64,000 bases of DNA from Antedon mediterranea. Taxonomy: Eukaryota > Animalia > Echinodermata. Position numbers and translations under genes: made by a program. The notes under the pieces were generated by a model. It made no database searches and was not told where the DNA came from. It saw only the letters and a program-made list of their open reading frames with translations. Shown here one piece after another: positions 106 through 47,755 of this stretch. Within the stretch, counting starts at the first letter, position 1. Every line of letters begins with the position of its first letter. The stretch is from contig NC_092677.1 in assembly GCF_964355755.1 (NCBI RefSeq), positions 6,160,101-6,224,100 on the forward strand, in the 5' to 3' direction.

Positions 106-3100
106 GTCATCAATTTCACTATGCCAAACACATTAAAGCATTATGTACATAGGGTTGGCAGGACAGCAAGAGCAGGGCGATCTGGAAGGTATACACAAAT
201 ATGTTCTTCATACCACCATTAATGCCACCTTTTTAACAAATTTGTGTCCGTTATTGTCCACTCTAGTGGATTGTTTTGGCATCATTAAATGCATCTTCTA
301 TACTGTAGTTCAAATAAAGTAAGATTATTCTATAGGTAATGAAAATATCCCTCCTATTTAATAAATTATTAGATAATATGGAAGGAATTTTGCTAAAGTT
401 TTACTTTCTAAATTGTACAAATTTATCAGGTTATGAAACATATTTGTATTGTTTTTTTTTTAGATCTGTGACACTTGTTGGTGAAAAAGAAAGAAGGCTG
501 TTGAAAGAAATAGTTAAACGTGCCAAGCAACCAGTAAAGAGTAGGGTTGTACCACTGGGTAAGTTGATATGCTACTGTTACAACAATTAAACTTTTTATC
601 TATATTTCTAGACAAAAAAGAGAAAACCATAACAAGTCTTGACCTGTGAAACTTGCACAAAACATATTTACTTTCTATCTAATAAATTTGTTGCAAATCT
701 ATGAATGTGAAACCTATACACAATTGCAGGGTTTCAAAATTCAGTATAGTTTATATGGGGTATAAAGCACGGCGCACACTAGAGCTTTCGGCTGAGCCAA
801 CTGGCACGAGTAACACTTAGCTCACTAAAACATTTGCCGCAAATTGTGATCGCGTTCTATCGGACGCACACTAAACGCCTTCAGTACGCGATTTGCTGAT
901 TGGATAGTTACTTAATACGCTATACGGCACGCGCTGACAAATTATAATAAATTAGAACATGTCATGCGCAGTGGAATTTTTTAGTGAGCTATCTGCTTAC
1001 GTTCGGCGCACACTTGAGGAAAATGGCACGCGTATATAAATATTAAACATGATAGATATTTTCCTCAGCGGCACGCGTGGCCGATTCCTGACAAATTCCC
1101 CGGCGCACACTGTGAGCAAAGTGTTACTCGTGCCAGTTGGCTCAGCCGGAAGCTCTAGTGTGCGCCGGGCTTAAGGGAAGCGATCTCTTGTGTTTAATCT
1201 GTGCTGTGCATATCCATATGTCCTGTCTACACTGTCAAACATTATGTGACTAAAATGTGAAAATATTTGAGCATATCACTACCATATTTGGTACTAGTTA
1301 TTGTAGACAGAGCTTTAGAAAAAATCTTCCTGCTAGTAGTAAAAAATATATTTTATGCAATACCTAACTTTTGAACATTAAAAAGAATGAATACATTGCT
1401 CATAAAGATGTGGTGCAGATATCCAAATTAATAAACACTCAAATTCGATTGTACAGTACATACAAATAGAACTGATCAAATGCAAAATTTCATATTTAGA
1501 TGTGATAAAGAAATATTCAGACAAAATTGAGGGTATGGAAGATGATGTGGAGAGGGTAGAAACTATGGAACTGGAAGAGAAAGAACTCCGAACATCTGAG
1601 AACCAATTGAACAGAGCCAAGGCACTGCTAGATAATGACAGAAATGAAGACAAGCAGAAGAGAGTTTGGTTTCAGAATCATAAACAAAGAATGCAATCTA
1701 AAGGTGCTAGATACAATATTATAAATACTGAAGTTGTCTTTAAATGCAATTAAATAATTTATTTACTATTTATATAATGTACAGTAATTTATTTCATAGA
1801 GTTAATAGACAAATAGTAGAGGATGAGATCTGAAATCTTTAAATAAAGAATTTATTTTTTCTATTTTGTTAGTCAATCAAGTGCTAGACAAGGCTGCGTT
1901 AGAACGGAAAACGAAAAAGAAGAAAGGACAAAAATTTAACAAGGAAAAAGAAACTGTAGGTTATTTTTAGTTTACAAGTGTATCGTTTAACTTTCTATAC
2001 CTTGTTTAATGCCATTATATAGTATTACTACTTTGAATAAATAACATTTTATTTAAATAGTTCAGTAAATAAATTAACAATATTTTATTTATTACCATCT
2101 TTTGTTTGTTATTTAGTCGGAAGGAAGGGTGATGGTGGAAATAGAAAAATCTCAATTATTTGCTGCTAGAGCAGCTAAGCGGGATAGAAAGGGTAAACGT
2201 CTACGTGCCTATGATGAAACAGATGCACAATCAAACCATTCAGGTATGATTCTGTGTCTTGTTTTTAGAACCCTTTTTTACATTAGAAAGGGTAAACGTC
2301 TACGTGCCTATGATGAAACAGATGCACAAACTAACCATTCAGGTATGATTCTGTGTCTTGTTTTTAGAACCCTTTTTTACATTAGAAAGGGTAAACGTCT
2401 ACGTGCCTATGATGAAACAGATGCACAATCAAACCATTCAGGTATGATTCTGTGTCTTGTTTTTAGAACCCTTTTTTACATTAGAAAGGGTAAACGTCTA
2501 CGTGCCTATGATGAAACAGATGCACAATCAAACCATTCAGGTATGATTCTGTGTCTTGTTTTTAGAACCCTTTTTTACATTAGAAAGGGTAAACGTCTAC
2601 GTGCCTATGATGAAACAGATGCACAATCAAACCATTCAGGTATGATTCTGTGTCTTGTTTTTAGAACCCTTTTTTACATTAGAAAGGGTAAACGTCTACG
2701 TGCCTATGATGAAACAGATGCACAATCTAACCATTCAGGTATGATTCTGTGTCTTGTTTTTAGAACCCTTTTTTACATTAGAAAGGGTAAACGTCTACGT
2801 GCCTATGATGAAACAGATGCACAATCAAACCATTCAGGTATGATTCTGTGTCTTGTTTTTAGAACCCTTTTTTACATTAGAAAAGGTAAACGTCTACGTG
2901 CCTATGATGAAACAGATGCACAATCTAATCATTCAGGTATGATTCTGTGTCTTGTTTTTAGAACCCTTTTTTACATTAGAAAAGGTAAACGTCTACGTGC
3001 CTATGATGAAACAGATGCACAATCTAATCATTCAGGTATGATTCTGTGTCTTGTTTTTAGAACCCTTTTTTACATTAGAAAGGGTAAACGTCTACGTGCC

Positions 3101-6035
3101 TATGATGAAACAGATGCACAATCTAACCATTCAGGTATGATTCTGTGTCTTGTTTTTAGAACCCTTTTTTACATTAGAAAGGGTAAACGTCTACGTGCCT
3201 ATGATGAAACAGATGCACAATCAAACCATTCAGGTATGATTCTGTGTCTTGTTTTTAGAACCCTTTTTTACATTAGAAAAGGTAAACGTCTACGTGCCTA
3301 TGATGAAACAGATGCACAATCTAATCATTCAGGTATGATTCTGTGTCTTGTTTTTAGAACCCTTTTTTACATTAGAAAAGGTAAACGTCTACGTGCCTAT
3401 GATGAAACAGATGCACAATCTAATCATTCAGGTATGATTCTGTGTCTTGTTTTTAGAACCCTTTTTTACATTAGAAAGGGTAAACGTCTACGTGCCTATG
3501 ATGAAACAGATGCACAATCTAACCATTCAGGTATGATTCTGTGTCTTGTTTTTAGAACCCTTTTTTACATTAGAAAGGGTAAACGTCTACGTGCCTATGA
3601 TGAAACAGATGCACAATCAAACCATTCAGGTATGATTCTGTGTCTTGTTTTTAGAACCCTTTTTTACATTAGAAAAGGTAAACGTCTACGTGCCTATGAT
3701 GAAACAGATGCACAATCAAACCATTCAGGTATGATTCTGTGTCTTGTTTTTAGAACCCTTTTTTACATTAGAAAAGGTAAACGTCTACGTGCCTATGATG
3801 AAACAGATGCACAATCAAACCATTCAGGTATGATTCTGTGTCTTGTTTTTAGAACCCTTTTTTACATTAGAAAAGGTAAACGTCTACGTGCCTATGATGA
3901 AACAGATGCACAATCTAACCATTCAGGTATGATTCTGTGTCTTGTTTTTAGAACCCTTTTTTACATTAGAAAGGGTAAACGTCTACGTGCCTATGATGAA
4001 ACAGATGCACAATCTAACCATTCAGGTATGATTCTGTGTCTTGTTTTTAGAACCCTTTTTTACATTAGAAAGGGTAAACGTCTACGTGCCTATGATGAAA
4101 CAGATGCACAATCAAACCATTCAGGTATGATTCTGTGTCTTGTTTTTAGAACCCTTTTTTACATTAGAAAGGGTAAACGTCTACGTGCCTATGATGAAAC
4201 AGATGCACAATCAAACCATTCAGGTATGATTCTGTGTCTTGTTTTTAGAACCCTTTTTTACATTAGAAAGGGTAAACGTCTACGTGCCTATGATGAAACA
4301 GATGCACAATCAAACCATTCAGGTATGATTCTGTGTCTTGTTTTTAGAACCCTTTTTTACATTAGAAAGGGTAAACGTCTACGTGCCTATGATGAAACAG
4401 ATGCACAATCAAACCATTCAGGTATGATTCTGTGTCTTGTTTTTAGAACCCTTTTTTACATTAGAAAGGGTAAACGTCTACGTGCCTATGATGAAACAGA
4501 TGCACAATCTAATCATTCAGGTATGATTCTGTGTCTTGTTTTTAGAACCCTTTTTTACATTAGAAAGGGTAAACGTCTACGTGCCTATGATGAAACAGAT
4601 GCACAAACTAATCATTCAGGTATGATTCTGTGTCTTGTTTTTAGAACCCTTTTTTACATTAGAAAAGGTAAACGTCTACGTGCCTATGATGAAACAGATG
4701 CACAAACTAATCATTCAGGTATGATTCTGTGTCTTGTTTTTAGAACCCTTTTTTACATTAGAAAGGGTAAACGTCTACGTGCCTATGATGAAACAGATGC
4801 ACAATCTAATCATTCAGGTATGATTCTGTGTCTTGTTTTTAGAACCCTTTTTTACATTTATATATACTGTAATCTTGTAATTATATGCTAAGAATGTCTT
4901 AAAATTGAGAGATTTTTTAAACATTAATACAGTAATTATATTGATCGTCGTGAGGTGGTTTCCCGAATGATCGTAAAATCAAAACGGTACTGGGTATGAC
5001 CAACTAGCGTTATTGTCATCGTGAGGTGGTTTCCCGAATGATCGTAAAATCAAAACGGTACTGGGTATGACTAACTAGCGTTATTGTCACCGGCTAGTCA
5101 TCCATTCATAGAAGTACTAATGTAGTAGCCTACCTGTAACCATAGAATGTGACCCGAGGCATGGCTAACTACGACTTTTAGATGATAGAAAGTTGATTTT
5201 GATTTTACGATCTTTCGGGAAACCACCTCACGATGTAATTATATTGATTTGTCATTCGTTTTTAAAAGAATGGATGAATTCCTATATTTTTTGTATGCAA
5301 GATAAATTATTTACTTTTGAGATATTGTTGCAGATGAAATACTTGCCCATATTATTTATAACAATGATTAACAATTAATTTAATTTACACAGGTGCAAAG
5401 AAAAAGAAGATAAATAAGAAGACGTCATTTGATAATGAGCTAACAGCAACAAGCAAAAACGCTGTCAAACGATTTAGAAGCAAGTGAGTATGAGGTTCGG
5501 TTGTAAATAATAGAAGAGAAAGAATTTACAAATGTAGGCCTACAAAATGCAGTACATGATATATAAAATAGCAGGCTTCATAGACCTTTTTTAAAAACCT
5601 CTTCAATGGTACATGACGGTAACTATTAATATGACATCGTTTAGATGTTTTGCTGCATATTTTTTTTATAATTTTATTTCAAATCTCCATCTTCCAACAG
5701 AGACTTTTATTATCTACTTTATTTAACTAACAAGCAGACCTGTCAAGTCAAGTAGAATGAACATTGATTAAGTATTTTTCTTCCACAGAGCCAATGCCAA
5801 TATTGCAGAGAAATCAAGACAGGAAAAGAAATCCGGCAAGAAATCATCACAATCAAACAAAAGGTTAGGACCATTTTAGGCTTAAATACCAATAACAGTG
5901 TACAAAAGGCTTATTATATTTATATGGAGTTGACCTTGGTGTGTGACCTAAAAAGTTTATTTACCTTGAGTAATAGTAATATCAGAATTAATATTAAATT
6001 GTTTCTTTTACTTTTTCAGATACAACCGGAGGTAA
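106..6035 (+). CDS. DDX27: DEAD-box RNA helicase DDX27/DRS1, 3' part (5' end outside window)
   Basis: Exons 106-188, 464-558, 1500-1703, 1873-1955, 2117-2243, 5393-5483, 5789-5863, 6020-6035 join in frame with GT-AG introns. They give helicase motif VI ([19 protein letters not shown]), the DDX27-like KRVWFQ and SFDNELT segments, and a basic end RYNRR*. Confidence 0.92.
766..1171. mobile_element. PIF/Harbinger-type MITE in DDX27 intron
   Basis: About 60-bp near-perfect TIRs (agc(a/c)cggcgcacactagagctt...), TAA duplicated at 763-765 and 1172-1174, no ORF. Confidence 0.85.
1224..1316. mobile_element. Short MITE-like repeat (related copy at about 42973-43069)
   Basis: Inverted ends ctgtctacac...gtagacag. 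The core catatcactaccatatttgg recurs reverse-complemented in a TMPPE intron. Confidence 0.5.
2185..4857 (+). repeat. Tandem array, 27 x 99 bp, spanning a DDX27 exon 3' end and intron 5' end
   Basis: Unit tagaaagggtaaacgtctacg...cattcag|gtatgattc...ttttacat starts at 2185, 2284, ... 4759. It reads open as 33-aa repeats. Confidence 0.98.
4946..5235. mobile_element. Small TIR element with duplicated left end
   Basis: TIR c(g/a)tcgtgaggtggtttcccgaa-gatcgtaaaatcaaaa with its reverse complement at about 5197-5235. The first 71 bp are tandemly duplicated. Both flanks carry taattatattgat. Confidence 0.8.
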
Positions 6036-6661: not shown

Positions 6662-7424
6662 TAATGTATTAGGCCTACATTAAAAAAAAAGAAACCAAAC
6701 AAGAAGGGATATTGTGTACACAACTGGAAAAGAGAAATACGTGGCAGTATACATGTTTAAAATATAATTAAATGCCGCACAAAATCTTTCCAATTTAAAA
6801 CGTTAAAAACTGGCAGTGTTTACAATTAAAACTAAAATATTTTTGTCAACACATGAATTAAAGTAAATGCGTTGTATCTATAACCATTATTGTTTAGTAT
6901 CTTTTTAATGCATTGCTCAGATTGAAAGACGAATTGATAAATAGTGCATGATAAGTAAATGATATTTAGTAAATTAGCAGTCTTTAGCCACGTTCACCTA
7001 AGATTGTATCGTGATTAACTATCGGTCAAGGATCCTCTTTTCCCCTATTCACTTTAGTCCAGCAACTACTGTACGTTGTTGCAAGGGGGTCCGTCGTGAC
7101 TACCTGCAATATTTTGTAATAATTGTCTATGTCACGAGATTTAGTTGTTCGACCTCGAAATTGTGTTCTAGTATTTTGATATCTGTTTGGGCCATTTAGT
7201 AGCAGGCCTACAATGGTTTAAATATTGCTATTAATTCCAAAGAACAAAGACTAAATTACATTTGCATTTTGTTATTTACTTTGCATATGTTGGCTGGTTG
7301 ACTAATTCATAATAATAATATAAATCAAACGTTAGGTTAATGTAATTTGCGGGTATGGCTAATAAAAGCTCTTACTCTCAACTTTATGAGTCCACAATAA
7401 CCGTCGTTAAGCGAGTGCTACACG

Positions 7425-9376
7425 ATGTCTGAAGGATATATTCTTACGTCCTATCACGGTTACACCACCGACGATAAAACGTCCGGTGAAGACACTTCTA
7501 TCTCAAATAGCCATGTTTATTATGACAGTATTTCGGAAGTAAGTTTGTGGAGATCGGTATTCGCCGAGTTCTTGGGATTGACACTCCTGGTATTAATCTC
7601 AGCTGGAGCATCTGCTCCGTGGGATGAGCCGAACGCTCCAACAGTTTTCCAGATAGCTATCGCAAGTGGTTTGACGATAGCGACGTTGATCCACAACTTT
7701 ATGGCCGTCAGTGGAGCGCATGTAAACCCTGCCGTCACTATAGCTTTTATTGTAAGTCGAAAGATCAGTTTTCTGCGAGGTTTATTATACGTATTGTTTC
7801 AGTGTGCAGGGGCTTGTCTTGGCGCGGAAATCTTGAAAGCAGTTACACCGGACGAGATCTACGACAAAGCAAATGGCACGTTTGGATGCACTTTGCTGGC
7901 TGATGAAGTGTCTCTTGGACAAGGATTTCTTCTAGAGTTTATGATAACCTTCCAGTTGCTTTTGACAATCTTTGCAGCAAGTGATGAGGGTCGTACTGAC
8001 ATGAAAGGATCCATGCCGCTTACTGTTGGGTTGTCAGTTATATGTGGAGTAATCTTTGGAGTAAGTATCATCCGTAGTTTCCATCGCAATACACTTAAAT
8101 GGCCAGTATAGTCGAAACCCACATAGTCTCGGTGAAAGTTCCTCGTTTGCCTAGATTTGGGAATTTGTAAATCTTTATCGATGGCCTTTCTCCCCGCTAA
8201 AGTTTCTTTTCGGATTATTAATGTATGAGGGAATGTGTTTATAATGTAGAGTAACATATGCAGAATAACATATACATAACTGGCCAATAATAGCATCATC
8301 CAAATCAATCTACTTTAAAATCAATGCATCTTTCAAATTGTCGTGTATCGTCGTACCCGTTTTTTTTAGACAAATTAATAACATACGCTGAGATGAGTAT
8401 AATAACAATGAATGTGTTTAATGAAACCAACTAGTACTATTGATGAACAAGTATAGAACGTTCGTAGGCTAACCTATCGCCAGAGCATATGCGCAGTACG
8501 CATATATATGTGCGCGTGCATATACTACACAAATAGGTGTAAAATCAGTTATTGAAGTGTCACCACCCTTTACCAGATCAGTCAATTAATTATTAAAATA
8601 TTTGGCCTTTTAACTTGTAAATTATGAAGCTGATCAACAATAAAATAATATTTGTCATAATGTATGCGGTATTTGTTTCTTAAGAAACCAGTGCACCGGG
8701 GAATGAGTTTCTCAAACTATTCCTCCGGGATAATAATATTTCTAAACTATTATATTAGGCCTAATACCGTTCTCGGACACTGTCTTTTAACGTTGACTTT
8801 TATTGATTTTACAGCTTTCATACACGGGAGGGAGTATGAATCCTGCACGTTCCTTTGGTACAGCAGTAATCGCAGGTTGTTGGAAAGACCATTGGGTAAG
8901 TTTACGTTAAAACAAGTGTATACTGTTTAATTAATGCTTCCGTAATAGGGTGGGTGTGGTCGGCTGAGTGTAAAGAAGCAAACGTGGATGGATCTTATTA
9001 GAAACCGTCAAAGAAGAATGTTTATCATACAAATAATTAGGCCTATTAATAAAGAATATTTGTGGTGGCTATGGAATTAGGCCTACAATTTAACAACATA
9101 TGTTACCCAATAACTGATATTGACTTTATGTAATGATAAATAAATTATTCAAAAAGTTATGATATTCCGCTAATGAAATGATGTTTACTTGCGGGTATAG
9201 TTATGTTTAACTGCGGAGGTTAAAATAAATGTTTAGTCTAATTAATTAATTGATCAAATTGTTTCTTTTAGATATACTGGTTGGCACCTATCCTAGGCGG
9301 AATTGTAGGTGGTGTTATGTATGAATGCGGATTTTCACAAGCAAGATTAAGCACACGGCGTTCTTGTATGGCTTAA
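7425..9376 (+). CDS. Aquaporin (MIP family, AQP4/AQP1-like), about 273 aa
   Basis: Exons 7425-8060, 8815-8895, 9272-9376. Motifs [22 protein letters not shown] and [12 protein letters not shown]. Confidence 0.93.
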
Positions 9377-12090: not shown

Positions 12091-15000
12091 TCAGCTTTGT
12101 GTCAAAACTTGTGCCTTAAGCCTTTCTATTTCCAATATTTGTTTCTCAATTATAGAATCCTTGTCCTGAATCTCTCTCTTTAAGCATTTTATCAACTGGC
12201 AGAAAAAGAAAGAAAAAAGTAAATCATGAAATTCCTGAGTCGATGTAAATTAGCAGTTGAGTGTTACAAATGTATCCATTCTGGTACTAAACTAAAGCAC
12301 AATTGTAATAAAAAATTTTGACAATACAGCACTTCTACCATTCTATGATATCCATAACTATTTCTATTCTCCTAGGCCTTCAAAGAGAACCAAATCTTAT
12401 CTGAATCATAAGACTTGTTTTGAAGACTTTGTTAAAATGAACAGACTATATCTTGTTTATTTTGTGAATGGATTGTCTCCTATTTGAGACAGTGATTAGG
12501 CTTCCTTATTTACCTCATCTTTTGACATAAACAGCTTTCCTTTCTTCAAATCATCAGCACTGGGGCGCATTTCTGGATTCAGGGATGTTAACTCTTCAAT
12601 CATTTTAGACTGAAAATACATCGATGACTAATTATAGTACTTTCTTTAAAATGTATAAAATATCATCTTTGGTGTTATCAAAGAATTGTGTGTGTGAGTT
12701 ATTCTAAATAGAATTTCATTTAGTCTGTATGTAATATCACTTTTACATCACACCATAAAAAATGCAAGGTACAGTCAGTCAAAAAGTAGTTCAAAAAATG
12801 GTTGTAAGGCTTTAAAGTTAATAGCAATTTGCAAAAAAAAGTATTTAGTCCATCAGAAATCATATTAGCCAGTCGATCGAAGTAGTCGGGTCAGTCAGAT
12901 AGCATAGTTGGGTGGCATGCAGGCTGGTGGGATGTTAGAAAGTAAAGCAGGGGCGGATCCAGGAAGTATGGCCATGTGCTTGCCTATTTCTACAGATCTA
13001 TATTGACAGACAACTGTATTAATCAGTAGATTGACTCTCTGACATGAGTGTTAATTTACCTCATCAGGCCATCTTCTCCTGAGCTCAGTGTGAATTGTTC
13101 CCTCATCCCTAAGAGTTTTTAAACATTTAGCTTTCTCCATCTGGCTCTTGAAAGGGTGGTGCAACTCAAAACAAATCACTCCAAAACTATACATATCAGA
13201 CTAAAAAAATAAATAAATTCAATGTTATAACAATGGAACAAGGTGGTTACATACAGTAAACATTAAAAAGATACACTTACCTTATGGTCATAGGTTCTTC
13301 CACATAGTTGTTCTGGTGACGCATAAGTGCAAGTACCAATGTCAGTTGTGAGCTTACTTGTAGAAATTACAACTTCACCTAAGATATAACAAAACACTCT
13401 TGAATTTTCTCTTAATTGTACCTGTTAAATTTTCTTTTCGGTAGTCTGATATTTATTTATCACGTTGAAAATCCGGTTCTTGTCAGATCACCGAAGTTAA
13501 TTAAGCAACGTTGGGCCTGGTTAGAGCTTGGATAGGAGACCATCTGGGAATATTGGGTGCTGTATATGGGTCCCATTTATGGCAGCCGCTGTATATAGTA
13601 TCTGCCTTGGACATATTGGCCCATGCCATGCCCACATTTGGTTTATACTTGAGCAGTTTTTTGTATGCCAAATAAGAAATTGAGCCCTGATTTCATTTCT
13701 CGTAGAGAATGCACAAATCTTCATGAACTTACTAAGTTGGTTACGTAGTTCCCCTATAGGTGTAACAGGGTCTTGATGCTTCTCAGCTATGAATTCACGT
13801 GCTAATCCAAAGTCACCAATACAAACATGAAATTCTATTTCATTACCATCAAGAAATATGTTTTTTGGCTACAAAATTAATAATAAAAATGTAATACATA
13901 CTGTTATCAATAACATTACCTGTAATTATAAATACTTCATAGTAAGAGGAAATAGTTTCACATTACTGTATACCTACAGTATGTCTATGGTATACCATAC
14001 AGATCAGTACCAATTTCACAATTATTGCTAAAGTTCATGTTTCATCTAATTTCCTCTCAAATATATACCATATATTAGATACTTACAGTCAGATCCCTGT
14101 GCAACAAATTCTTGTTATGTATGTAGCAAATACCTTCTACCATTTGATTGAATATATTTTGCACAACAAAATCATCCACAATGGAGAAAACATCTGGAAA
14201 AAAAAACAGTAAGAAAAATATTGATAATAATGACATGAACTTTAGGATATGAAAGTTTTTCAGTGTGTTCGCACATATGCGTAATACATTTCTTGTTAAT
14301 CCAGACTTCAGCTGTAAGCTCAATCATCAAATGTTTTATATTAAGCTAAGAATAGCCAATTCAACAAGGTTATAAAGTGGTAAATCACAAACCAATTACT
14401 CAGTAATAATTCTGCTCTTTCAGTATTGATTTTGTAATTGAATTACACTTAAATCAAATATTAAATGTTTTATACCACATCCTTCCATTGGTTCCCGATC
14501 ATTTCTTTCTTCTAACCATTCACCTAATGTTTTACTGCAGAGTTCCATCTGAATGTACAAAATTACCCTGGATTTCTGTAAAGCAATCAATTTGTAAAAA
14601 TGTTTAGAAATATTTAGTAAGACAGTGTCTAAACTGACAGATGGGGTCATGTTAAGCTAAAGGTGCACTCATATTAATAATGTATGGATTACTTTTATTT
14701 TTATGTGAAGCGCATAGAGGCTTTGTCCATTATGCGCTTAAAAGTCCAAATTTATTTTTGATTATTATTATAATGTACTACTATACTTAGATCAGAATTT
14801 TTGTTTTGGTTCTGTGTGGGAAGTGTTCAAACAATACAGTACCTGAAATTCTGAAGTGTGATGATGACCTTGTCTCGAGCTGCTCTTTTCTTCCTTCCTC
14901 GCACCCATGCAAGCTGTGCTACTAATGCTACAATGGTCAAGGGACTTGAAACATTTGTCTTGGTGTCTACATTCCTCAAACCTTACTGTCTTTGATTTTT

Positions 15001-18000
15001 CAAAATTAAACTCTTGCTCAGATTTTAATACATTAAATGAACCAAAGTTGCCACACAACTTTAGTCCATTTGTTTCCTCAGATGAGGACATAATTTCAGT
15101 TTTATTAACAACAGACGAAGTAGTATGTTTTGAAACATACGAGTGAATGTTTTCTCCAGAGTACTCTTCAATGAAATCTACAGAAAATTCCTCCTCTTTG
15201 TAAGTTGAACTTTCCGTAATTAAAACAGAGTTTGATTGCTTTGATGAAGTGGCATGGGGATATGCACATGTCTCAATATCAGATAATCTATTGCCATATG
15301 TAATCTGAACATCTCCCTCGTCAATGTCTTCCTCAATATTAGGAGTGTAGTTGATTTCACAATCATCTTCCATTATTTCATTTGTAACATCTTTGATAAT
15401 GCAGCTTCTTGTCTCTGTTCTAGTCACATTGGAAATTGTTTCAGTTTCAAAATCATCGCTGGAAGAACTTTCTTGCCTATTAAATCTGAAAAGGGGAAAA
15501 TTCCATTTAAATATATTAATGTAAATTATAGACCTAAAAAAATAACAATAGAGACAATATGTTCAATAGAACTTGAACCCAGTCAGCCATTTTGTGCAAT
15601 CATGACAATGGATAAACTATGTTATATCTTATGTCTCTCTTGCAGTTGACTGGGTAATTAGGAGATTTAAAATAAGTCTTTAGATGGATGTCCACGCCCA
15701 ACTTACACAGTGTTGACAGGATACTCTATAGCAGGTAATTTACTTCTTTGATTGGTCTCAGACGATTGGTGGTCAATCCAAGCTGTGTTATACCTCACTA
15801 TATTTTGATGCTGCAAACGGGCTAACAAGTGTACTTCCCGGATAACCTACAAGAGAACAATTTTAATACACAATAAAGTTAAACGCTTGAAATATCTGTT
15901 GTAAATTAACTGTATTAACAAAAAACCGGTTGTAATTTTCTAAAGGATTGATTTAATTGAAATAACTTTTATAGTTCATTCATGTTGTAGAACTTTTATA
16001 AAGTTGACTCCTGTTAGACAGACAATTGTGGTTTATATTCAAACAAAATAGTACCTGTCAGCTTTACCTTTTCATAAAATTCCTTGTCCGTATCTTTAAG
16101 CTTAATTTTCTTTATTGCATATTCTTGATTGTCTAGAATACTTCTCACCTGGAAATGAAATTAAAGTTATGAAGTTTGAACAGAGGAATTTTGCTTAGAG
16201 AAGGTACTGGGTTAGCGCTTGAGAGCGATAGTATTGTTAAAAATAGAACTATTATGATTATAATTTATTGAATAAATGTGAAAATATGATTTGAAAATGA
16301 CTAACTGTATGATGAATGATACAGTAGTATAAATGTCATACAGTACTGCTTTCCCCTACCTTGTAAACACTGCCAAAACCACCACTACCAATACGTTCCA
16401 ACTCCTCAAAATCTTTCTTGTACCTTGAAATCAGTGGTGGCATTTGCATATGAACGTTATTGGTAAAAAGTGGATAATGCATAGGGCTAGGGTTGGCAAG
16501 AATGGCCTTTCTTATCTGATCTTGGACTCCAGATGAAGGCAGTGATAGATACCTCTCCTAATAAAATTTAACAAAGAAATTTATAATAAAATTAATAAAC
16601 ACTCAAAATAACAAGGCCATATACATGGATGCAGTCGCATGTTAAAATTTAAGTTGGTGTTTACCAACCAACCGACATAGTGAGCTGTAAGAAGGCAAGG
16701 GGATGTTATAATCATCTTGTTGCATGGGGAGAAATGTGGTTCATTATAATTAGCATATAATGTAGTCTACTGTAGGCTAATGTGTTAATCATCAGTAGGT
16801 CTACAATATGGCATATCTGTACCTGGATTTTAGGAATCTTTTTATTTTATTGGGGTTACAGTATATGGAAGTATATTAAGTGGTTTTATGAGGGTTCCAT
16901 GCAAATTCTTGGAAATGTGACATACAAACTTTACCTCTGAATTTGCTTGAGATGCAATCAGTGCGGTGTTCATGAACTTTTTAATTGCCAGTCTATAATT
17001 TAATCTAACTTGTTTGAACTCGTCATGAGTTGTCGTTTCAGGAATCATCTAATTTAAAAAGCAATATTGAAAACAATATTAATTCACAAAACCACATTTA
17101 ACTCTCGCCACATTGTTGCTTGTATCCTTAGGCAAGATACTTTACTTACATTTTCCAGGCCTCCCAGGTGTATAAATGGGAACCCGGTTAGATCAAGACA
17201 CAACTTTGCGCTGATTACTAGCTGCATTATGGGAGTATGTTTCCATTACATAAAGTTCAAAGATCAAAAAGTAAATTAACAAACTCAGGAATCAGGATTA
17301 GATTTAAAACAGGGAGAGGTGGCAGGCCCTAAAACTTGTGAAAATACTAAGTGCTGAACTTAATTCGATGTCCTATCTTTTACATTATACTTGAAAATGA
17401 ATTAACCCCCCATACCTTGACGGTTGACAAATACCCGCTAAACACTTTGAATAGACGTTTTTGCTGATTCTCATCTTTAGAATAGCAGGAACACAACTCC
17501 TCCAACAGGGACACCAGCAACATTTCATTTGGAATCCTGCGCAATAAGGCCTGTGTTTCTGGTGTTTCACTGGAGGAAGAACTCTCAGTATCTAAACAAA
17601 TGAAAACAGTGGTTTTGAGTCAATTGATATTGTCTATCAAGCTATCAAACTAATCGCATGTGGAAAGTACCGATTATCCTGTGAAAGATTGTTACAACTT
17701 CTACATCATCATCAGCACATTATTTAATATGTTCTTATCACTTTGTTGTGCCTCTTGATCAATACCATCAGCAAGGTTAAATTTGGGGGTGCTGGTCAAC
17801 CCGTACCCAAACCAACCCGTACCCATGCCAACTCGTACCCAACTTGGCTAACCCGTACCCAAATAATTGGTCAACTCGTACCCACTTTGGCTAACCCGTA
17901 CCCAAACCAACCCGTACCCATGCCAACTCGTACCTAAATATTTGGCTTACTCGTACCCAAGTATTTGGCTTACTCGTACCCATTTTTTGGCTTACCCGTA

Positions 18001-20579
18001 CCCATTTTTGGCTTACTCGTACCCATCATTATTTGGCCTACTCGTACCCAATTTGAATAATTACTTGTAATGATTTGATCGGCGCAAAACTAGTGGTATG
18101 CTTTTGCCGTATGAATATTTTTATATTTAAATGGTTTTTTATTTTACAGGTCTCGGTGAAATGTGTGCTAATAAAAATGACCATTGATTTGATTGTAGAC
18201 TTCGTTTAATTAGGCATATATTTGTTAACATTTATTTAAATCTAGTATTATAGTTTTATAAACGTATGTTTGATGTGTCTTTTTTATTTACGTAAGAGAA
18301 CATTAATTAATAAAAAAAATATTTTAACTGTTGTATAGTTAGTATTACAATTCAATTAAGCCCAGGTAAAGTACCAACAACGTATAATTATTATACTTAT
18401 CAATTTTTATTCTTTTATTATATTCTAATTATCTTCCCTGATTACATTCGATCAAGTAATTATTTCTATTGTATTTGGTATATTTAAAATTGGTTGAATT
18501 AACAACACCCTGTTTTAAGCAAAAAGCCTGCCGGGCTATGGGGTCGAATTACTCGTAGATTTCGTGTTTCTGACCGGGATTAACCTTTTATTATAAAAAA
18601 CACGCATTTATAGGGCCGGCGTCAAAGAGACGACTTAGTAATGACGTATGATCATTTTCCATATATTTTATTTATTAATAATTCAGTGAAATGATCATAT
18701 ACACGTACTGTCGTACTGTAGCCTAAGGCAATTAAACATTTTGGCAGATTTTCTTCTATAACAGCTACGTGTTTTTGCTGAATGGGGATTCCTCTTTATT
18801 ATTAAAAAAAAACGCATTTGTACGGGTCCATTTGTAGTGTGTCCAAAAATAGGCAACGCAATGTGGCGTATGATCGTTTTCTATTTATTTTTTTTCTTAA
18901 ATAATTCAGTAAAATTATCTGTTTGTTTACGGTAATTAAACATTTTTGGTAGATGTTTCCTCAATAACTTACATCTACGTGTTTTTGCTGACGAGGGATT
19001 CCCTTTAAAAAAAAAATACGCATTCTATAATGTGTCAAATAAGACAAATGAAATGAACTACGATCGTTTTTCCATGGCAACGGATGTCGTCTTATTTACT
19101 AAAATAATATAAACGTTCTGAAGGCCTACCTACACGTGTCTGAGTACTTACGTATCTGTCAGCGATAAGATGATTTTTTAAAGTTTTAGTAGTATTTATT
19201 TCGGTTTTTAGTCATAATAATACAGTAAAAATCATTATAAAATGAAAACGTAATAACAGCAAATGTCGTCGTTTGTAATTAAATGTTAAATTATTGGAGG
19301 TTAGTACAGTAGTTACCTTTTATTATTACTCTCACATCGTCATTGTATACTAGATAAACGGCAATAATCTAATCTACTACTAAATGCTCATAGCAGCAAT
19401 GAGGCTGGTATCCACTTAAATAGTTTCGTGATTTTAAAATACGAGTGACTATTTAAAAATGTATTAAATATTTTCGAAATGTTAAAACAGTTTAATATTT
19501 TCCAAAACTTGCAAAACAAAACAACAAAAACCATTCGTTTTAAAACGATTTTCAAAAAGCACATTACTTCATTATCTGTAAAATAAAATGAAAATACAAA
19601 TTATGTATAAAAGATATTCATGTTTACTTTTAATAATTCAAGTTTTCATCATCACAGACTAGTGGGTATTTCAATGTCCATGTACTACTATTCGTAGAAA
19701 ATAATAGATTAATAACTCATAAATGAAAAAAAAATAGAATGCAGCACAGCCGACCACTGACATCTTCCACAGAGCCATATAAAACAGCGCCCTCAAGTAT
19801 TAACTTTACCAAATACGACGTACGCAAATACGATGAAAGCTGTGCTTTTTTCGTACGAGTCTGTACATATTATTATACATTTTAGGTCAATAGTTTTTGC
19901 CATTATAATATCGAACATATGATTGGTATCTAAAAATTTAATAAAACTGGGTTTAAATGTAATATAAATATACTTTAAATAGCATTAAACTTGGGTACGG
20001 GCCAGCCAATGATGGGTACGGGTCAGCCAATGATGGGTACGGGTCAGCCAAAATGTTGGGTACGAGTAAGCCAAAATTTGGGTACGAGTTGGTGGGTACG
20101 AGTTGGCATGGGTACGGGTTGACCTGTATTCTAAATTTGGTACCAAGAATGGTACACATGAAAACACTCCAGGCCAGCCTAACTAAATATGTATACTGTT
20201 TAGTCTGCAAATAATGTTAGGGAGACTTATTAAATACAGTAGGCATAGGCAATAGCTACTTACCACCAGTATTAACCTTTTCCATTGCAATAATTTGTTA
20301 AAATTCACAGGTAATTAGAATCTGTCGGTTTATAATACTGAAACCTTTTTAGCAATTTGGAATTTCCCAGCATTTTATACTTTATTTCAGCAATCAAAAA
20401 CAGTATTACATTGTATTTATGCTATTTACTTAATACATGTTACAAGTTCAAGGTTGTTCAATGCATAGTAACAATAACATGTCAAATAAGTTTAGAAGTT
20501 TATTTGTAGACTAACCATCAAAATTTGAAATTGTAACTGGTGGGGATAATAATTTACTGTTTTTTCTTGATGGGTCCAT
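12091..20579 (-). CDS. EIF2AK1: eIF2-alpha kinase, HRI-like, about 732 aa
   Basis: Exons 20579-20516, 17591-17416, 17048-16935, 16557-16360, 16148-16068, 15846-15707, 15485-14843, 14575-14476, 14193-14087, 13868-13733, 13378-13281, 13200-13060, 12609-12514, 12195-12091. Motifs: HRI-type NEMLLVSLLEEL, SRYKKDFEELERIGSGGFG, YAIKKI, RYNTAWID, long kinase insert, LYIQMELC, HRDLTPKN, DFG, GTCTYASPEQ, C-terminal coiled coil. Confidence 0.92.
13458..13565 (+). pseudogene. 5S rRNA-derived pseudogene or SINE3-like head in HRI intron
   Basis: atcacgttgaaaatccggttcttgtcagatcaccgaagttaa(ttaa)gcaacgttgggcctggttagagcttggataggagaccatctgggaatattgggtgctgta is near full-length 5S with a 4-bp insertion and no oligo-T terminator. 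Confidence 0.8.
17100..17245 (+). mobile_element. SINE core fragment
   Basis: gtatccttaggcaagatactttac...cccaggtgtataaatgggaacccgg resembles conserved invertebrate SINE cores. Its tail tgcattatgggagtatgttt recurs at about 60358, followed by a gcgctataaat...attatta end. Confidence 0.5.
17787..20131. mobile_element. Foldback/MULE-type non-autonomous element in HRI intron
   Basis: Inverted arrays of (c/t)cgtaccca subterminal repeats at about 17794-18050 and 19990-20124. 9-bp TSD taaatttgg at 17778-17786 and 20132-20140. G...C termini. Internal degenerate repeats of about 200 bp at about 18550-19080. Confidence 0.85.
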
Positions 20580-42610: not shown

Positions 42611-45426
42611 CTATGCAGAATGCAATGTAATGAGCGTAACTTCTGGTGTTGAAAACATTCGCATTGGTATGCCCCAATAAAACGTGCCGGAAGAAACATA
42701 AACGTAACTCGTTGCACTGTATTGATATAAACCGATAAAATATGGATTTAAAAAGTATACCCATACAATTGCTGGAAACAACTGACCACCATGTGTGTGT
42801 CCTAGAAAGGTACAATATAAAATAGATAGATAATATCAGCGTGATAAGAAACATTACATAATCAGGGGAAGAATTGTCAGCTAAAATGCATTATGTTGTA
42901 TAAGTATAAACTACTTTTGATATCTATTTTTATATTTTATGTTAGGGCTTCCCCGTTAAAAAAAACTGGATCAAATATGGTAGTGGTATGCCCAAATATG
43001 GTAGTGATATGACATCATCATGTCCATTTGGGGACATCACATAAAGTTTGATAGAGTAGACAAGGCTTTAGAATATCAAGACAACATATTATCATCTTGT
43101 GAATTGACAAACCATAAAAGAACTCATGACTCAGATATCACATACCTGAAAGCACTAACTTGATGCCTTTGTCTGCAGAGAGTGCAGAGTATGCAGCACT
43201 TGGTCTGTGAGCCAGAAGAATGATGGCATGTTTTTGGTCTGTGCCTTCAAGAGCCTTATCCAACTTGAAACCATGATCACCGTACCTGCATCAACAAAAT
43301 GCAAGTAGTAGTGATATTAATGTTATTATTGTGACTGTTGTAAAGAAACAACTTCAACTAGACTGGAAGACACATTTGAACAATTATATGGAATATTTTA
43401 AATCTTGAATTTAATTTATAAAAGGGCATAATCAGACATATTCTAATGTTTGATATTTTTTATTGTACCTTTATCTTTTTTATCACAATGTATATACAGT
43501 ATAGGACTTTAACTGTATATTTTTATATTTGTATGTTCAGAATTACAGACTCTACCTTGGCCTTTTTCATGTTTGTTAATATGCAGGTCAAATTTGGGGG
43601 TGGGGGTGGTACAATGGTGCACATAAAATATATAATGGTTTATCCCATTGCAACAACTTATTACTTAAATGTTTCTCCTTGTACATCATCTGTGCCAACT
43701 AAATAGAAGAAATCTTTATCTTGAACTTGATGGCGAATTTTAATGTTTTCGTTATGCAGGCATTTCACACCAAGAGTTTTCAAGTAGACAATCCATGCAT
43801 CTACATCTCCAGTGTAATATTCATGGTTGCCTACAAATACAATAAGATTAATCTCACAATTCTTGCACCTCATTTTCACTGGCATAGATCCTGGGTTAAG
43901 GTAATTCAAGATCCCGGGAGAGGAGATGTAGACCCTGTGAGAGAGAATAAAACACTGGGAGAGGGGATATAGACCCTGGGAGAGGGGATATAGACCGTGG
44001 GAGAAGGGATATATACCATATGGGAGAGGGGATATAGACCCTGGGAGAGGGGATATAGACCCTGGGAGAGGGGATATAGACCCTGGGAGAGGGGATATAG
44101 ACCCTGGGAGAGGAAATATAGACCATGGGAGAGGGGATATAGACCGTGGGAGAAGGGATATATACCATATGGGAGAGGGGATAAAGACCCTTGGAGAGGG
44201 GATAAACACCCTTGGAGAGGGGATAAACACCCTGGGAGAGGGGATAGAGACCCAGGGGAGGGGATCCGATATAGACCGTGGGGAGGGGATATATTTTATA
44301 TGTCCCATTTGCATTTTCTTGTTTGCTTCTAAATGCCCAGTGTCCTAAATACCCAGTGTCCTCCATCTCCACTACTTAAAATGAATCAGGACCTGGCTCA
44401 CTTTGTTACTACGAAGACAACCTGTTTTTTTTAATCTTACCCGTGACAAAATAAGTGCCATATTGTGGATTAAGTTGATTCAAAGGCAATACAGCTTCAG
44501 ATAAGTATGAAACAGGAGCGTCTACTAAATCCCCAGTGATGGACACAAGATCTGTATAAACAAAACAAATACAGTCAGATACTTTTGTTTTTAAACTGTT
44601 ATCTTATGTTAAATTAGGAATTATTGTTGGTGATGATTTATAAATTGAAATACTGTATATATTATTATTTACCTGGATTTAAACTGTTTGTTAGTTCTAC
44701 TGCCCTTTGAAGCTGTGATTTACCTACAGTTGGTCCAAGATGTATATCAGATATTTGCACGATTCTCATACTATCAAAAACTTTTGGGAGATTAGAGATC
44801 GGAATGTTTACTTTTTTAATAATTGGCCCATGGAATGCCCTAGAAACAGCAGTAAATGCAAATATCCCAGACACAAAAACTACCACACACACTTTAAATA
44901 AAGTCATCCATTCGCGATCAGAATTCTTTTTTGGACAGAATATTTTTCGACAAATTGCACTGATTAAAAACCATAGTGCGATGTTTGTGGAAAGTAAAAG
45001 ATGGATTCCCATACAAATATAGGAAAACAAAACTATTTTATATGGTTCGGCAGAAATTAATGTAGCACCTAAAGGGTAACATAACTGAGCGCTTAGTAGG
45101 ACTGTAAATAATACACATTTCCATATAACCTGGAAACGACCTTTATATAAGCTAGGCCGTCTGATTGGCAATATTCCTCTCCTCGCGGCAGATTGCTTCC
45201 CTGTCGCATCGTGATGGCCTGCCTGCTGGGCTGGGTATAATTGCGACAGATTACGCCAAATAAAAAGTGATCCTAACGATAGAAGGGATTCAATAAATAT
45301 GACGATTTGGAATCGTAAAACCAAGGATCGAGTTTTTCGGTCAGAATTTCGAACAGCAAAAGAACTTAGCAAAAGAAAGAGCACTAAAGAACAGAACAAC
45401 ACCGACAACTTTTTAACGCCAGGCAT
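42611..45426 (-). CDS. TMPPE: Transmembrane protein with metallophosphoesterase domain, about 453 aa
   Basis: Exons 45426-44673, 44551-44441, 43830-43665, 43285-43146, 42801-42611. N-terminal TM helices, then calcineurin-like motifs SDIHLG, TGDLVD, GNHEYY, LAH, SGHTHGGQ. Confidence 0.93.
43914..44295. repeat. 21-bp G-rich minisatellite in TMPPE intron 2
   Basis: Units ccctgggagaggggatataga and variants. Confidence 0.92.
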
Positions 45427-46140
45427 GATAATGATGATAAAAATAACAACTGTTGGTAACTTAGTTAAGTTCAGATAGATTACAAAACGCGATCGTTCCC
45501 TACCGCAATAACCCCATGTTTTATCAGAATCAATAATGAAGCATATTGCCGACGTATTTTTTCTTTTTCCCGCGCGAAGTCTCAATGTATAATTTATCAA
45601 GTAATGCTAATATAACCATATCCTCCATGTGCTAACTTTATAAGAAAAGCAAAAAATCTCAGCCAGGTCTACTCATATGAGTTACGTAGGGTCCAAAACT
45701 TGAAACCATTTATTAATGTATTAATTACCTCTGTAGTGTATGTTCTAACTAATAAAAATATGAACAACTAGAATTTGCAGTTACATTTTTTTTTAATAAC
45801 AATTTTTCAGAAACTTTCTATTATTAATATTACAGTTTCACAGATTTTTTTTTACAATTTTTGTTCAAAGGAATCAATATTTGTGAATGGGCATTATAAC
45901 CAAAAACAAATTATTTTAAAACAAGAAATAACGCCGTAAAATAAGCTTACAATTTATTTTAAGTAAGATTTTGCTGTGTATTGACGATTTTTAATGATTT
46001 TGCAATATATTTTAATTTATTTTGTTATAGTATTATATGCATTTTTATATGTTTATACTGAGACAACAATCAAAGAGATTGGAAACGCTAGCGATTTCCC
46101 TTTGTGTGGCACTTGCCGCCAGGTTCAGTGTAGTATACCT

Positions 46141-46155: not shown

Positions 46156-46783
46156 TAGCTAAGTCACCGGCCAATCAGCGAATTCGCGCAAGCGCAGATT
46201 AACTGTTTATCAAAATCAGTGATCCATGAAAAAAGTTTTTGGAGGGGTTTTTAAATCTCACGAGCAGGAGATAAACAACGAAATATACGGTAAGACTATA
46301 GGTGTTTATAAACATTATTTATGTTGTTTAAAAATGTTAAATTAGGTATTAATTTTTTTCTGTAAAAATGATTATTAACACCAGAGTACAACACTACAAG
46401 AATTAATTGGAAAAAAAAAAAGATTTCTTTGGGATAATTATCAAATATTAGCCTACATATAATAGGCCTACAGCAGTAGCCTAGTAGGCCTATTCATTTA
46501 GCCAGCCCAGCATATTTATTATTAATTATTTTATTAGGCCCCTATTATAGGCCTAGGCTAATTATTAATAAATACTAGGCCAAGGCCCTAGCCTATAGGT
46601 GTAGTAGTATAGTAGGCCTAGAGGTTAGGTTCAATAAGGCATTCATTCATTCTTAAGTGTATGCCTATAATTATTAGGCTATGTCACATAATGTTAATAA
46701 TTTTAAATCAGGGTAAATTAAAGAGCAATATACGATATAAATAAATGAGAAAGCTCGTCAATTAGGTTTTTTTTTTTTCAGTT

Positions 46784-47755
46784 ATGGCAACAAAATCAAC
46801 AGCCTGTAGGCCTAGTCCTTTACCACTTACCACTGCCAAGGAAATTAATGAAGATTTGCCACACATGGTGACAGATGCACTGAACATATTAGTAACCGAT
46901 GACATTCACCATGCATCATGGTCCAAGTGTGGTTCAGGTGTGATCTCAATTGCAAAATCAATATTAGAGAATCAATCTGAAATAAATATGTTTTTATCGG
47001 AAGAGATTATGGATAGTCTGCTGCAGCCCACAGCTGCAGATATCCTAAAAGCTGTTTTCCAGCTGAGGATAAACAGAAAGTTTATTCATGATTTTTTGAA
47101 TAAGATAATTACTAATATTAATAATACAGAAACTGAAAAGGAGGCTTTTGTTCAAAGATTTTTGACCTGCATAACTACATCATTTTTTAAACGACAAAAT
47201 GAAAAAATTGAAGTAAGATATAATATGGAAATAGAGTTAGTAACTACAGCAGACAAGCAAATCATCCATCATATTACAGGTTCTATTATAAGAAAATTGA
47301 AAAAAAGGTACATGAACAAGCCAGTTGAAAGAGAGATGCTTAGCAATCTGACCACTGATAATGGTGTAGACAGTAGATGTTCATGGACACAAAGTTTGGA
47401 CAGAGGCGGTTTGATTTACCCCTCAACAAAATTTCTTAATTTAATTATTTTAATTGAGCGTTGGATTAGGGAGTTAATAAACAGTGAAAGTTTACAACAT
47501 GATTCTTTAATTAACATAAAGTCTACAATACTAAAGTATAAACTGGTAACACATATATGGAGTAACCTTATAACCTCACCAAATACACAGAAATGGATAG
47601 TGTTGGACAATGTTGTTGAGTTATTTTTAAAAATTAGAGGGTTTGCTTTAACTGAACAACTTAAAAGCAAAATGCAAAAAAAACAAAAGCAACAAAAACT
47701 TGCTGCCGGAACTAAAAAAGCATTAAGAAAAGAACTAAAAGAATTAAACAAGTAA
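46784..47755 (+). CDS. Transposon second protein, 323 aa; C-terminal half resembles the P/THAP9 transposase C-terminal domain
   Basis: Intact ORF with an acceptor (ttttttcag) just before the ATG. Motifs HITGSIIRKL, DRGGLIYPSTKF, IERWIR, VELFLKIRG. Basic tail. Confidence 0.8.
   Translation: MATKSTACRPSPLPLTTAKEINEDLPHMVTDALNILVTDDIHHASWSKCGSGVISIAKSILENQSEINMFLSEEIMDSLLQPTAADILKAVFQLRINRKFIHDFLNKIITNINNTETEKEAFVQRFLTCITTSFFKRQNEKIEVRYNMEIELVTTADKQIIHHITGSIIRKLKKRYMNKPVEREMLSNLTTDNGVDSRCSWTQSLDRGGLIYPSTKFLNLIILIERWIRELINSESLQHDSLINIKSTILKYKLVTHIWSNLITSPNTQKWIVLDNVVELFLKIRGFALTEQLKSKMQKKQKQQKLAAGTKKALRKELKELNK

Follow-up and report, generated by a model that had tools for sequence, protein, structure and literature searches.

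A 27-copy, in-frame repeat of an exon-intron boundary in the DDX27 gene of the crinoid Antedon mediterranea

The ribosome-biogenesis gene DDX27 of Antedon mediterranea carries at the end of one coding exon a head-to-tail array of 27 units of 99 bp (forward strand, positions 2185 to 4857 of the window, the 64,000-nt stretch of DNA analysed here), each of which repeats an exon-intron boundary together with its 5′ splice site, or donor. On balance, we favour the reading that this repeat is young, is present at full length on one chromosome only and is spliced mainly through its first donor. The remaining 26 copies would then leave with the intron, and translation would yield the usual protein of 747 residues. 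Most likely, the array represents a further case of a known type of repeat in a new animal group.

The identity of the gene follows from the final 256 residues of the model spliced at donor 1, which are identical to the end of an A. mediterranea protein (P0001) that bears the Pfam domains PF00270 and PF00271 and the name probable ATP-dependent RNA helicase DDX27. The 5′ part of the gene precedes the window, within which four forward-strand exons (106–188, 464–558, 1500–1703 and 1873–1955) lead to the coding exon with the repeated 3′ end (2117–2243), which encodes residues 646–688 of P0001 (tblastn, 100% over 43 aa). Downstream follow the exons 5393–5483, 5789–5863 and 6020–6035, the last one with the stop codon. 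The six other introns of the gene in the window measure 156–941 nt, the one upstream of the repeated exon having 161 nt. Pfam searches with single exons and with a two-unit peptide returned nothing useful, and a match to AMT4_dom_C on the 924-aa open frame was discarded, as it had 0 passing stretches and a score summed over the repeats.

Analysis with TRF gave a period of 99, 27.0 copies, 98% matches and 0% indels (2185–4858). Each unit joins the last 59 nt of the 127-nt exon to the first 40 nt of the following intron, and the donor CAG|GTATGA is present in all 27, with its GT at 2244+99k. The earlier note had described such in-frame, stop-free boundary copies with a donor in every one, and had reckoned that donor n adds (n−1) x 33 residues in frame; both the layout and the arithmetic hold. 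From 2117 onwards, the DDX27 frame meets no stop until the TAA at 4889–4891 (924 aa), and starting from donor 1 (2241–2249, type A unit), use of donor 2 (2340–2348, type B) would add 33 residues and use of donor 27 (4815–4823, type G), the closest to the acceptor with an intron of 575 nt, would add 858. Four variable columns define nine unit types, in the order ABAAACADDCADDCAEEFCAAAAGHIG, with T replacing S in units 2, 25 and 26. No 15-mer of the unit was found outside the array within the 64,000-nt window, and the remainder of the array-bearing intron holds a high-copy element with inverted ends of 37–39 nt (4948–5235, strand unassigned).

Neither the frame nor the pattern of substitutions was retained as proof of function. 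Simulated duplications yielded an in-frame, stop-free unit in 3337 of 34932 cases (about one in ten), and one allele of a close relative (organism B) seems to lack 17–19 letters within 4811–4862, according to arithmetic on depth bins; the in-frame unit was thus rejected as proof of selection. In a similar way, the changes in three of the four variable columns leave the protein unaltered (P about 0.04), a synonymous bias that was rejected as proof of translation since column 52 is common to single-copy alleles and residue 685 can be S, T or, in the second named DDX27 protein (P0002), A.

Twelve sequencing runs were found, all as contigs and none recorded as RNA, and five of them were aligned to the locus: X1, X2, X5 and X6 upstream of the array, and X1, X5, X6 and X8 downstream. 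Coverage blanks (X5 at 2246–2283, X1 at 4858–4914) carry no meaning; one X6 alignment had no cover at 2236–2283, and its allele contigs are seen in another. X1 and X2, two DNA runs from one sample, each contain a collapsed head-to-tail contig of 129 letters that goes through the unit and then back to the unit start. As this may be the window's own sample, we take it as a check on the assembly rather than as a second animal. The earlier note had allowed for an assembly artefact behind a single real unit, which these read-derived junctions contradict. An artefact with one or a few real units is extremely improbable: the junction occurs in both aligned runs of the sample at 10–31 times the flank depth, and nine patterned unit types are unlike a collapsed or inflated repeat, even if the read-based copy number comes from depth and the roughly 21–25 units that depth implies over both chromosomes lie slightly below the 28 expected.

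Depth also bears on zygosity. The collapsed unit reaches 383.3 in X1 and 208.4 in X2, and X1 has a pair of allele contigs next to each other, with depths of 24.8 and 22.7. Measured against all 12 flank contigs used, the unit is 9.9–30.6 times deeper, where 27+1 copies should give 20.2 and 27+27 copies 39.0, bearing in mind that contig depth is not copy number. The full 27 copies are therefore likely to be on one chromosome only, which fits depth better than both; since flank depths differ threefold, the other chromosome might also bear an array, though a shorter one. In both organism B samples, one unit is present in all four alleles seen: two allele contigs of X6 cross the unit once, with depths of 24.9 and 23.1 that add up to 48.0 against 47.8 upstream, and so do two of X8 (74.2 and 105.7). 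For this reason, the array looks young.

A microhomology of 1 nt may have been the site of the strand slippage or unequal exchange that started the repeat, a process probably aided by a stem-loop joining both breakpoints. Such a structure is predicted for unit 1 (2186–2278, forward strand) with −27.3 kcal/mol as RNA (1 of 200 shuffles as good) and −13.1 as DNA (1 of 300), and its outer stem (2186–2194 with 2270–2278) would bring the duplication breakpoints together. The fold reaches significance in unit 1 only; for unit 27, 26 of 200 shuffles are as good. Turnover of the units through unequal exchange or conversion shows in four of the six column pairs, each with all four letter pairs, and in the repetition of the four-unit block ADDC. 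Growth and shuffling by these processes would have involved, in part, single-copy alleles, and both letters of column 52 are found among those of organism B.

Splicing of the array is likely to proceed mainly through the first donor. Spliced RNA comes from X5 only, which shows the joints 1703 to 1873 and 1955 to 2117, GT..AG joints further downstream and, in a 2034-nt contig, the repeated exon once (127 letters) joined to 5393 by GT..AG; together with P0001, this contig confirms the exon-intron boundary. X5 is an individual other than the source of the array, with a different allele that departs from copy 1 at three letters, and its contig has no joints inside or between units. The two named DDX27 proteins among 17 candidates of 119–2000 aa, P0001 and P0002, have the motif once each, as proteins that may come from non-carriers. 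Exon definition starting at the 2117 acceptor would select donor 1 with a degree of leakage to donor 2, although with an upstream intron of only 161 nt intron definition could also apply. An isoform with 33 additional residues through donor 2 is, from folding models, a fair possibility. Donor 1 belongs to the type predicted to be most buried and the sole RNA derives from another allele, which both speak against the donor-1 reading; the preference for downstream donors in vitro (PMC3413131), the synonymous bias of the variable columns and the confinement of the significant stem-loop to unit 1 also weigh against the overall favoured reading.

A rather unlikely alternative is that RNA structure governs the choice, the hairpin hiding donor 1 so that a substantial fraction of the transcripts goes through donor 2 and the protein gains in its C-terminal tail a 33-residue insert, made of a hydrophobic 14-mer and of a basic 19-mer that thereby occurs twice. 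The predicted inner stem (2216–2237 with 2243–2268) covers donor 1, whose opening would cost 10.9 kcal/mol, against 4.7 for the far more open donor 2 and 2.8–5.3 for the six other donors of the gene, and the gap between donors 1 and 2 is 6.1–8.3 kcal/mol in nine of 12 temperature and window settings. The copy-1 letters at 2186 and 2233, absent from the other alleles compared, both strengthen the predicted fold, and the exon ending at donor 2 would have 226 nt, an ordinary size. Moreover, loss of donor 1 in F7 activates donor 2 (PMC1557585), and ABCA7 (PMC5954066), CBS and 6-16 (PMC1557585) show some use of the next units. On the other hand, all this energetic evidence is predicted and the gap shrinks to 1.3–2.3 kcal/mol in the three settings with the widest window, partial burial is tolerated in the X5 allele, whose spliced donor has a predicted opening energy of 6.5 kcal/mol, and no protein with the 33 residues is on record in the P0001 cluster, which has one member. 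Far less probable would be exonisation by proximity, in which the open donors 25–27 (4.4–6.5 kcal/mol by prediction) are used and the array is mostly translated, adding up to 858 residues, or a multi-donor ladder is produced. The frame open across all 27 units, the 575-nt intron given back by donor 27 and the synonymous bias suit it, and so does the in vitro finding that, of duplicated strong donors at least 45 nt apart, the downstream site takes nearly all splicing (PMC3413131). However, it requires a 2.7-kb internal exon crowded with acceptors and donors, the F7 data (PMC1557585) show skipping instead of distant-donor use, a stop-free unit arises by chance at the rate given above, and a synonymous bias is also expected if the letters entered from functional alleles. 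Furthermore, 26 hydrophobic inserts would hit the tail that DDX27 uses for nucleolar targeting (PMC12395886), and the 17 candidates, up to 2000 aa, include no such protein, a weak argument. A ladder of 27 isoforms is unsupported and contrary to natural precedents, in which use is limited to the first one to three donors (PMC1557585, PMC3087553 and PMC5954066).

Cryptic exons lead to a further alternative. The earlier note had pointed to an AG at each junction, which defines 26 possible 56-nt exons (the first at 2287–2342, forward strand) and 43-nt introns, and had overlooked a second AG 25 nt past each donor, which defines 26 of 74 nt (the first at 2269–2342). This second AG has 14 pyrimidines in 20 positions, versus 10–16 in authentic acceptors, and in 14 of the 27 units it is preceded at 33 nt by a CTAAY (for example the branch-point-like CTAAC of unit 2, at 2331–2335, ahead of the next such AG), whereas none of the 27 units has a branch-point-like motif before the junction AG. 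Inclusion of one 56-nt exon shifts the frame to an end in ...VQRKRR*, just as the note had worked out, and a single cryptic exon puts the stop 70 nt ahead of the next junction and 145 nt ahead of the last one. Since all ten paths examined (1, 2, 3, 6 or 26 exons of either size) lose the normal C-terminus to a premature stop, the proposed resemblance to intron and exon birth fails at the protein level, and 43 nt is far below the 156–941 nt of the other introns. As a main route, 43-nt introns were discarded for the missing branch motif and the rarity of short introns in human, where those of 65 nt or less are rare even if one of 43 nt exists (PMC4463651). It is nevertheless conceivable, if decidedly unlikely, that the array acts as a leaky poison allele, donor 1 being joined to a cryptic acceptor of a later unit or the 127-nt exon being skipped, with degradation of the early-stopped products, a lower DDX27 output and compensation by the second allele. 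The quality of the second AG and its branch-like motif, the early stop in every path tested and the depth typical of a heterozygote are consistent with it, as is the ABCA7 repeat, whose length shifts splicing of a neighbouring exon (PMC5954066). Nonetheless, the branch-like motif is 9 nt before the donor, where U1 binding would presumably compete, pairing is predicted for the pyrimidine tracts of many units, and lancelet mirages with AG/GT signals left splicing undisturbed (PMC3087553).

As a test bed, this natural allele would set first-donor scanning (PMC1557585) against downstream-donor preference (PMC3413131). Since the array seems heterozygous, a single animal allows comparison of the two alleles, and since use of a later donor keeps the frame, the resulting products would persist and could be counted, which most human cases do not offer. 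The unit types predict open donors in units 2, 25 and 26 and closed ones in type A. We think it unlikely that a segregating allele lets unit differences of 1–3 letters set, via the hairpin, which of the 27 identical donors opens, lengthening DDX27 by 33 residues or, from the open last donors, by up to 858. Were such gating true, nature would at this locus have pitted RNA structure against position in the choice of a 5′ splice site, and a coding repeat would have been caught as it arose.

The DDX27 array is of the donor-spanning minisatellite or mirage type, with head-to-tail units of which the first lies on the authentic boundary. Several relatives have been described. In human boundary minisatellites, likewise made of head-to-tail units with an authentic donor each, only the first donor is used in F7 IVS7 (37 bp, 5–9 copies), PDGF intron 4 (81 bp, 16–18 copies) and LMNB2 (10–15 copies of a 100-bp unit, near the size found here), whereas two more donors are used in CBS IVS13 (15–20 copies) and 6-16 (25 pseudo-sites) (PMC1557585). 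Those minisatellites vary between alleles, while organism B, a close relative of the crinoid, is single-copy in four of four alleles seen; moreover, the DDX27 unit has no stop and a length divisible by three, so that later donors escape nonsense decay, and its variants are predicted to alter donor accessibility, whereas the F7 authors found no structural explanation (PMC1557585). The ABCA7 intron 18 VNTR (25 bp) also starts at a donor and some transcripts keep one unit, but that unit is intronic and frameshifting (PMC5954066), while the DDX27 unit copies 59 nt of exon and is in frame if retained. In potato RdRp, a tandem duplication across an intron-exon boundary similarly made new pairs of splice signals and a new intron was demonstrated (PMC4974935), whereas in DDX27 a frameshift results from every candidate intron (25 or 43 nt plus multiples of 99). 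Finally, the amphioxus mirages of Adh3 and the globins BflGb6 and BflGb9 (units of 150–160 bp) likewise repeat an exon-intron boundary in tandem within the genome of a marine deuterostome, differ between haplotypes and were proposed as raw material for intron gain (PMC3087553); in comparison, DDX27 has 27 near-identical copies versus 3–6 in BflGb6, belongs to the essential housekeeping genes and shifts frame in every cryptic-exon route.

A gene for a DEAD-box helicase is represented in the window by its 3′ portion, for which a single-exon query matched two of 17 candidate proteins, both named DDX27 and both from feather stars (P0001, 747 aa, Antedon mediterranea; P0002, 753 aa, Anneissia japonica). 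An eight-exon product spliced at the donor at 2243 ends in 256 aa that are 100% identical to the end of P0001, which places the source animal among the feather stars, in Antedon or close to it. The 27-unit repeat of an exon-intron boundary described in the earlier note was borne out by Tandem Repeats Finder, which gave 27.0 copies of a 99-bp period with 98% matches and zero indels. Each of the units, which span 2185-4857, comprises the final 59 nt of the 127-nt exon (2117-2243) and 40 nt of intron, carries the donor CAG|GTATGA and keeps the DDX27 frame without a stop, and the arithmetic by which use of donor n would add 33(n-1) aa also holds. This donor matches seven of the nine places of the consensus, and none of the gene's seven donors in the window does better. 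Because simulated duplications over these seven donors were in frame and stop-free in 3337 of 34932 cases, the open frame of the array is only a weak hint.

The repeat was followed in public sequencing runs by aligning their contigs to stretches containing one unit. Runs X1 and X2, from one sample judged to be DNA from its intron cover, are possibly from the window's own sample and thus bear on the assembly rather than on a second animal. In each, a 129-letter contig reads 2185-2283 and then returns to 2185-2214, a head-to-tail junction (depth 383.3 in X1 and 208.4 in X2) that rules out an assembly artefact. The words of this contig have a mean multiplicity of 19.5 in the assembled array, so that its expected depth is 20.2 times that of a single allele with 27+1 copies and 39.0 times with 27+27. 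Two allele contigs run in parallel over 5441-5790 in X1 (depths 24.8 and 22.7); the alleles differ strongly there, 116 letters (5505-5620) being exchanged for 30 in the second. Junction depth amounts to 15.5-17.9 times the single-allele depths (21.4-24.8), or 21-25 units on both chromosomes together, and to 9.9-30.6 times each of 12 flank contigs, never reaching 39; since contig depth, by the tool's own warning, is no copy number, heterozygosity of the array is only likely and a shorter array on the second chromosome possible. In the close relative that carries the separate label organism B, two allele contigs in each of two samples (X6 and X8) pass the unit once and continue into the intron (4766-4913). 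Their depths total 48.0 in X6, against 47.8 immediately upstream, and 179.9 in X8, against 213-224 downstream, so that all four alleles seen are single-copy and the array is likely young; neither run contains a collapsed high-depth unit contig.

Spliced sequence came from X5, a different sample, of organism A, which the tool labelled 'RNA?' yet which holds five GT..AG joints. Its single 2034-nt contig includes the 127-nt exon once, spliced to 5393. Three letters differ from copy 1, namely a listed C at 2186 and Ts at 2233 and 2236, the latter two deduced from the agreement of X5 with unit 27 at positions 4807 and 4810; judged by these letters, the contig reports another allele and therefore gives no donor choice for a carrier of the array. 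By analogy, the first donor is probably dominant in the array allele, since human F7, with 5-9 identical donors, splices only at the one farthest upstream, and LMNB2 (100-bp unit) and PDGF likewise use the first alone, although CBS and 6-16 use two further donors as well (PMC1557585). Studies of other systems describe undisturbed splicing in lancelet mirages (PMC3087553) and retention of one repeat unit in ABCA7 (PMC5954066). Against first-donor dominance stands work on model substrates, where strong donors duplicated at least 45 nt apart were spliced nearly always at the downstream site (PMC3413131). Use of the last donors, or of the full ladder envisaged in the earlier note, is very unlikely. 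Substantial use of donor 2 is unlikely. Its predicted opening is far cheaper: the 9-nt donor would cost 10.9 kcal/mol to open in type A units, copy 1 included, compared with 4.7 in unit 2; the figure is 4.4 for units 25-26 and 2.8-5.3 for the other six DDX27 donors. Nine of 12 settings put the predicted gap between donors 1 and 2 at 6.1-8.3, and the three with the widest folding span put it at 1.3-2.3; the single-copy alleles gave 6.5 (X5 letters, an allele that does splice) and 8.9.

A further possibility is that the units act as cryptic exons. In each, the donor is followed by one AG at +25 and a second at +43, and either AG has 14 pyrimidines in 20 (10-16 at authentic DDX27 acceptors); CTAAY lies 33 nt upstream of the +25 AG in 14 of the 27 units, and in none within 18-40 nt upstream of the +43 AG. 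Splicing between adjacent units implies introns of 25 or 43 nt, against 156-941 nt in the gene's six others. Size would make joining of donor 1 to an acceptor at least one unit further on (at least 124 nt) feasible. The path with one cryptic exon places a stop 70 and 145 nt upstream of the two later junctions, which under the 50-55-nt rule would expose the transcript to nonsense-mediated decay. None of the ten cryptic-exon paths computed keeps the normal C-terminus, and neither does a transcript that skips the 127-nt exon; a leaky poison allele is thus conceivable, if quite improbable, whereas the suggested birth of an intron or exon fails at the protein level, since the array, in contrast to the potato case (PMC4974935), offers no way to gain an intron that preserves the frame. 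In humans, introns no longer than 65 nt are rare (PMC4463651). The tail affected here serves nucleolar targeting in human DDX27 (PMC12395886).

The duplication breakpoints of the array have 1 nt in common, and unit 1 is predicted to form a long stem-loop whose outer stem pairs both unit ends; its DNA fold (-13.1 kcal/mol) was equalled by one of 300 shuffles and none of 265 nearby sliding 99-mers, and its RNA fold (-27.3 kcal/mol) by one of 200 shuffles; unit 27 was not exceptional (26 of 200 shuffles as good). Hairpin-assisted slippage, which would require type A to be the founder, is a fair but unproven origin. Four variable columns define nine unit types, in the order ABAAACADDCADDCAEEFCAAAAGHIG, and all four letter combinations occur in four of the six column pairs, so that exchange between units is needed. 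Part of the variation may have entered from the other chromosome, as both letters of column 52 occur among the single-copy alleles of organism B and column 49 is T in every other allele compared. Such input would explain why all four columns fall within the exonic portion of the unit (P 0.13) and why three are synonymous (P 0.04), making translation of the array unnecessary.

Other elements lie in and around the gene. Inside the array's intron, a high-copy non-coding element (4938-5235) looks like a MITE; its inverted ends measure 37-39 nt and its left end, of 71 bp, is duplicated. Contigs of this element reach depths between the thousands and the hundreds of thousands in each of the four runs compared. 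A 408-bp palindromic, MITE-like element (765-1172; 61-nt inverted ends, 95%) occupies the 941-nt DDX27 intron, and an aquaporin first exon (7401-8111, +; Pfam MIP, E 2.6e-44) follows about 1.3 kb past the DDX27 stop. Farther on are a possible non-autonomous DNA transposon of about 2.3 kb, bordered on either side by arrays of a 16-23-bp motif in inverted orientation (17794-20124), a purine-rich 21-bp minisatellite (43908-44293) whose roughly 17 copies leave frames open on both strands, a 794-aa frame for a P-element-like transposase (47855-50239, -) in which Pfam domains of the TNP-like RNase H and GTP-binding insertion types were recognised, and a 352-aa frame (60471-61529, +) that contains a domain of the pyridine nucleotide-disulphide oxidoreductase type. 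The frames at 14792-15562 (-, 256 aa), 44665-45606 (-, 313 aa) and 46766-47755 (+, 329 aa) had no Pfam match at E 0.001.

Altogether, the initial observation is confirmed and its interpretation partly supported. The DDX27 array belongs, on the features testable here, to the class of donor-spanning minisatellites or mirages. It stands slightly apart in that its unit is in frame, the array is likely heterozygous and the unit types are predicted to differ in donor accessibility.
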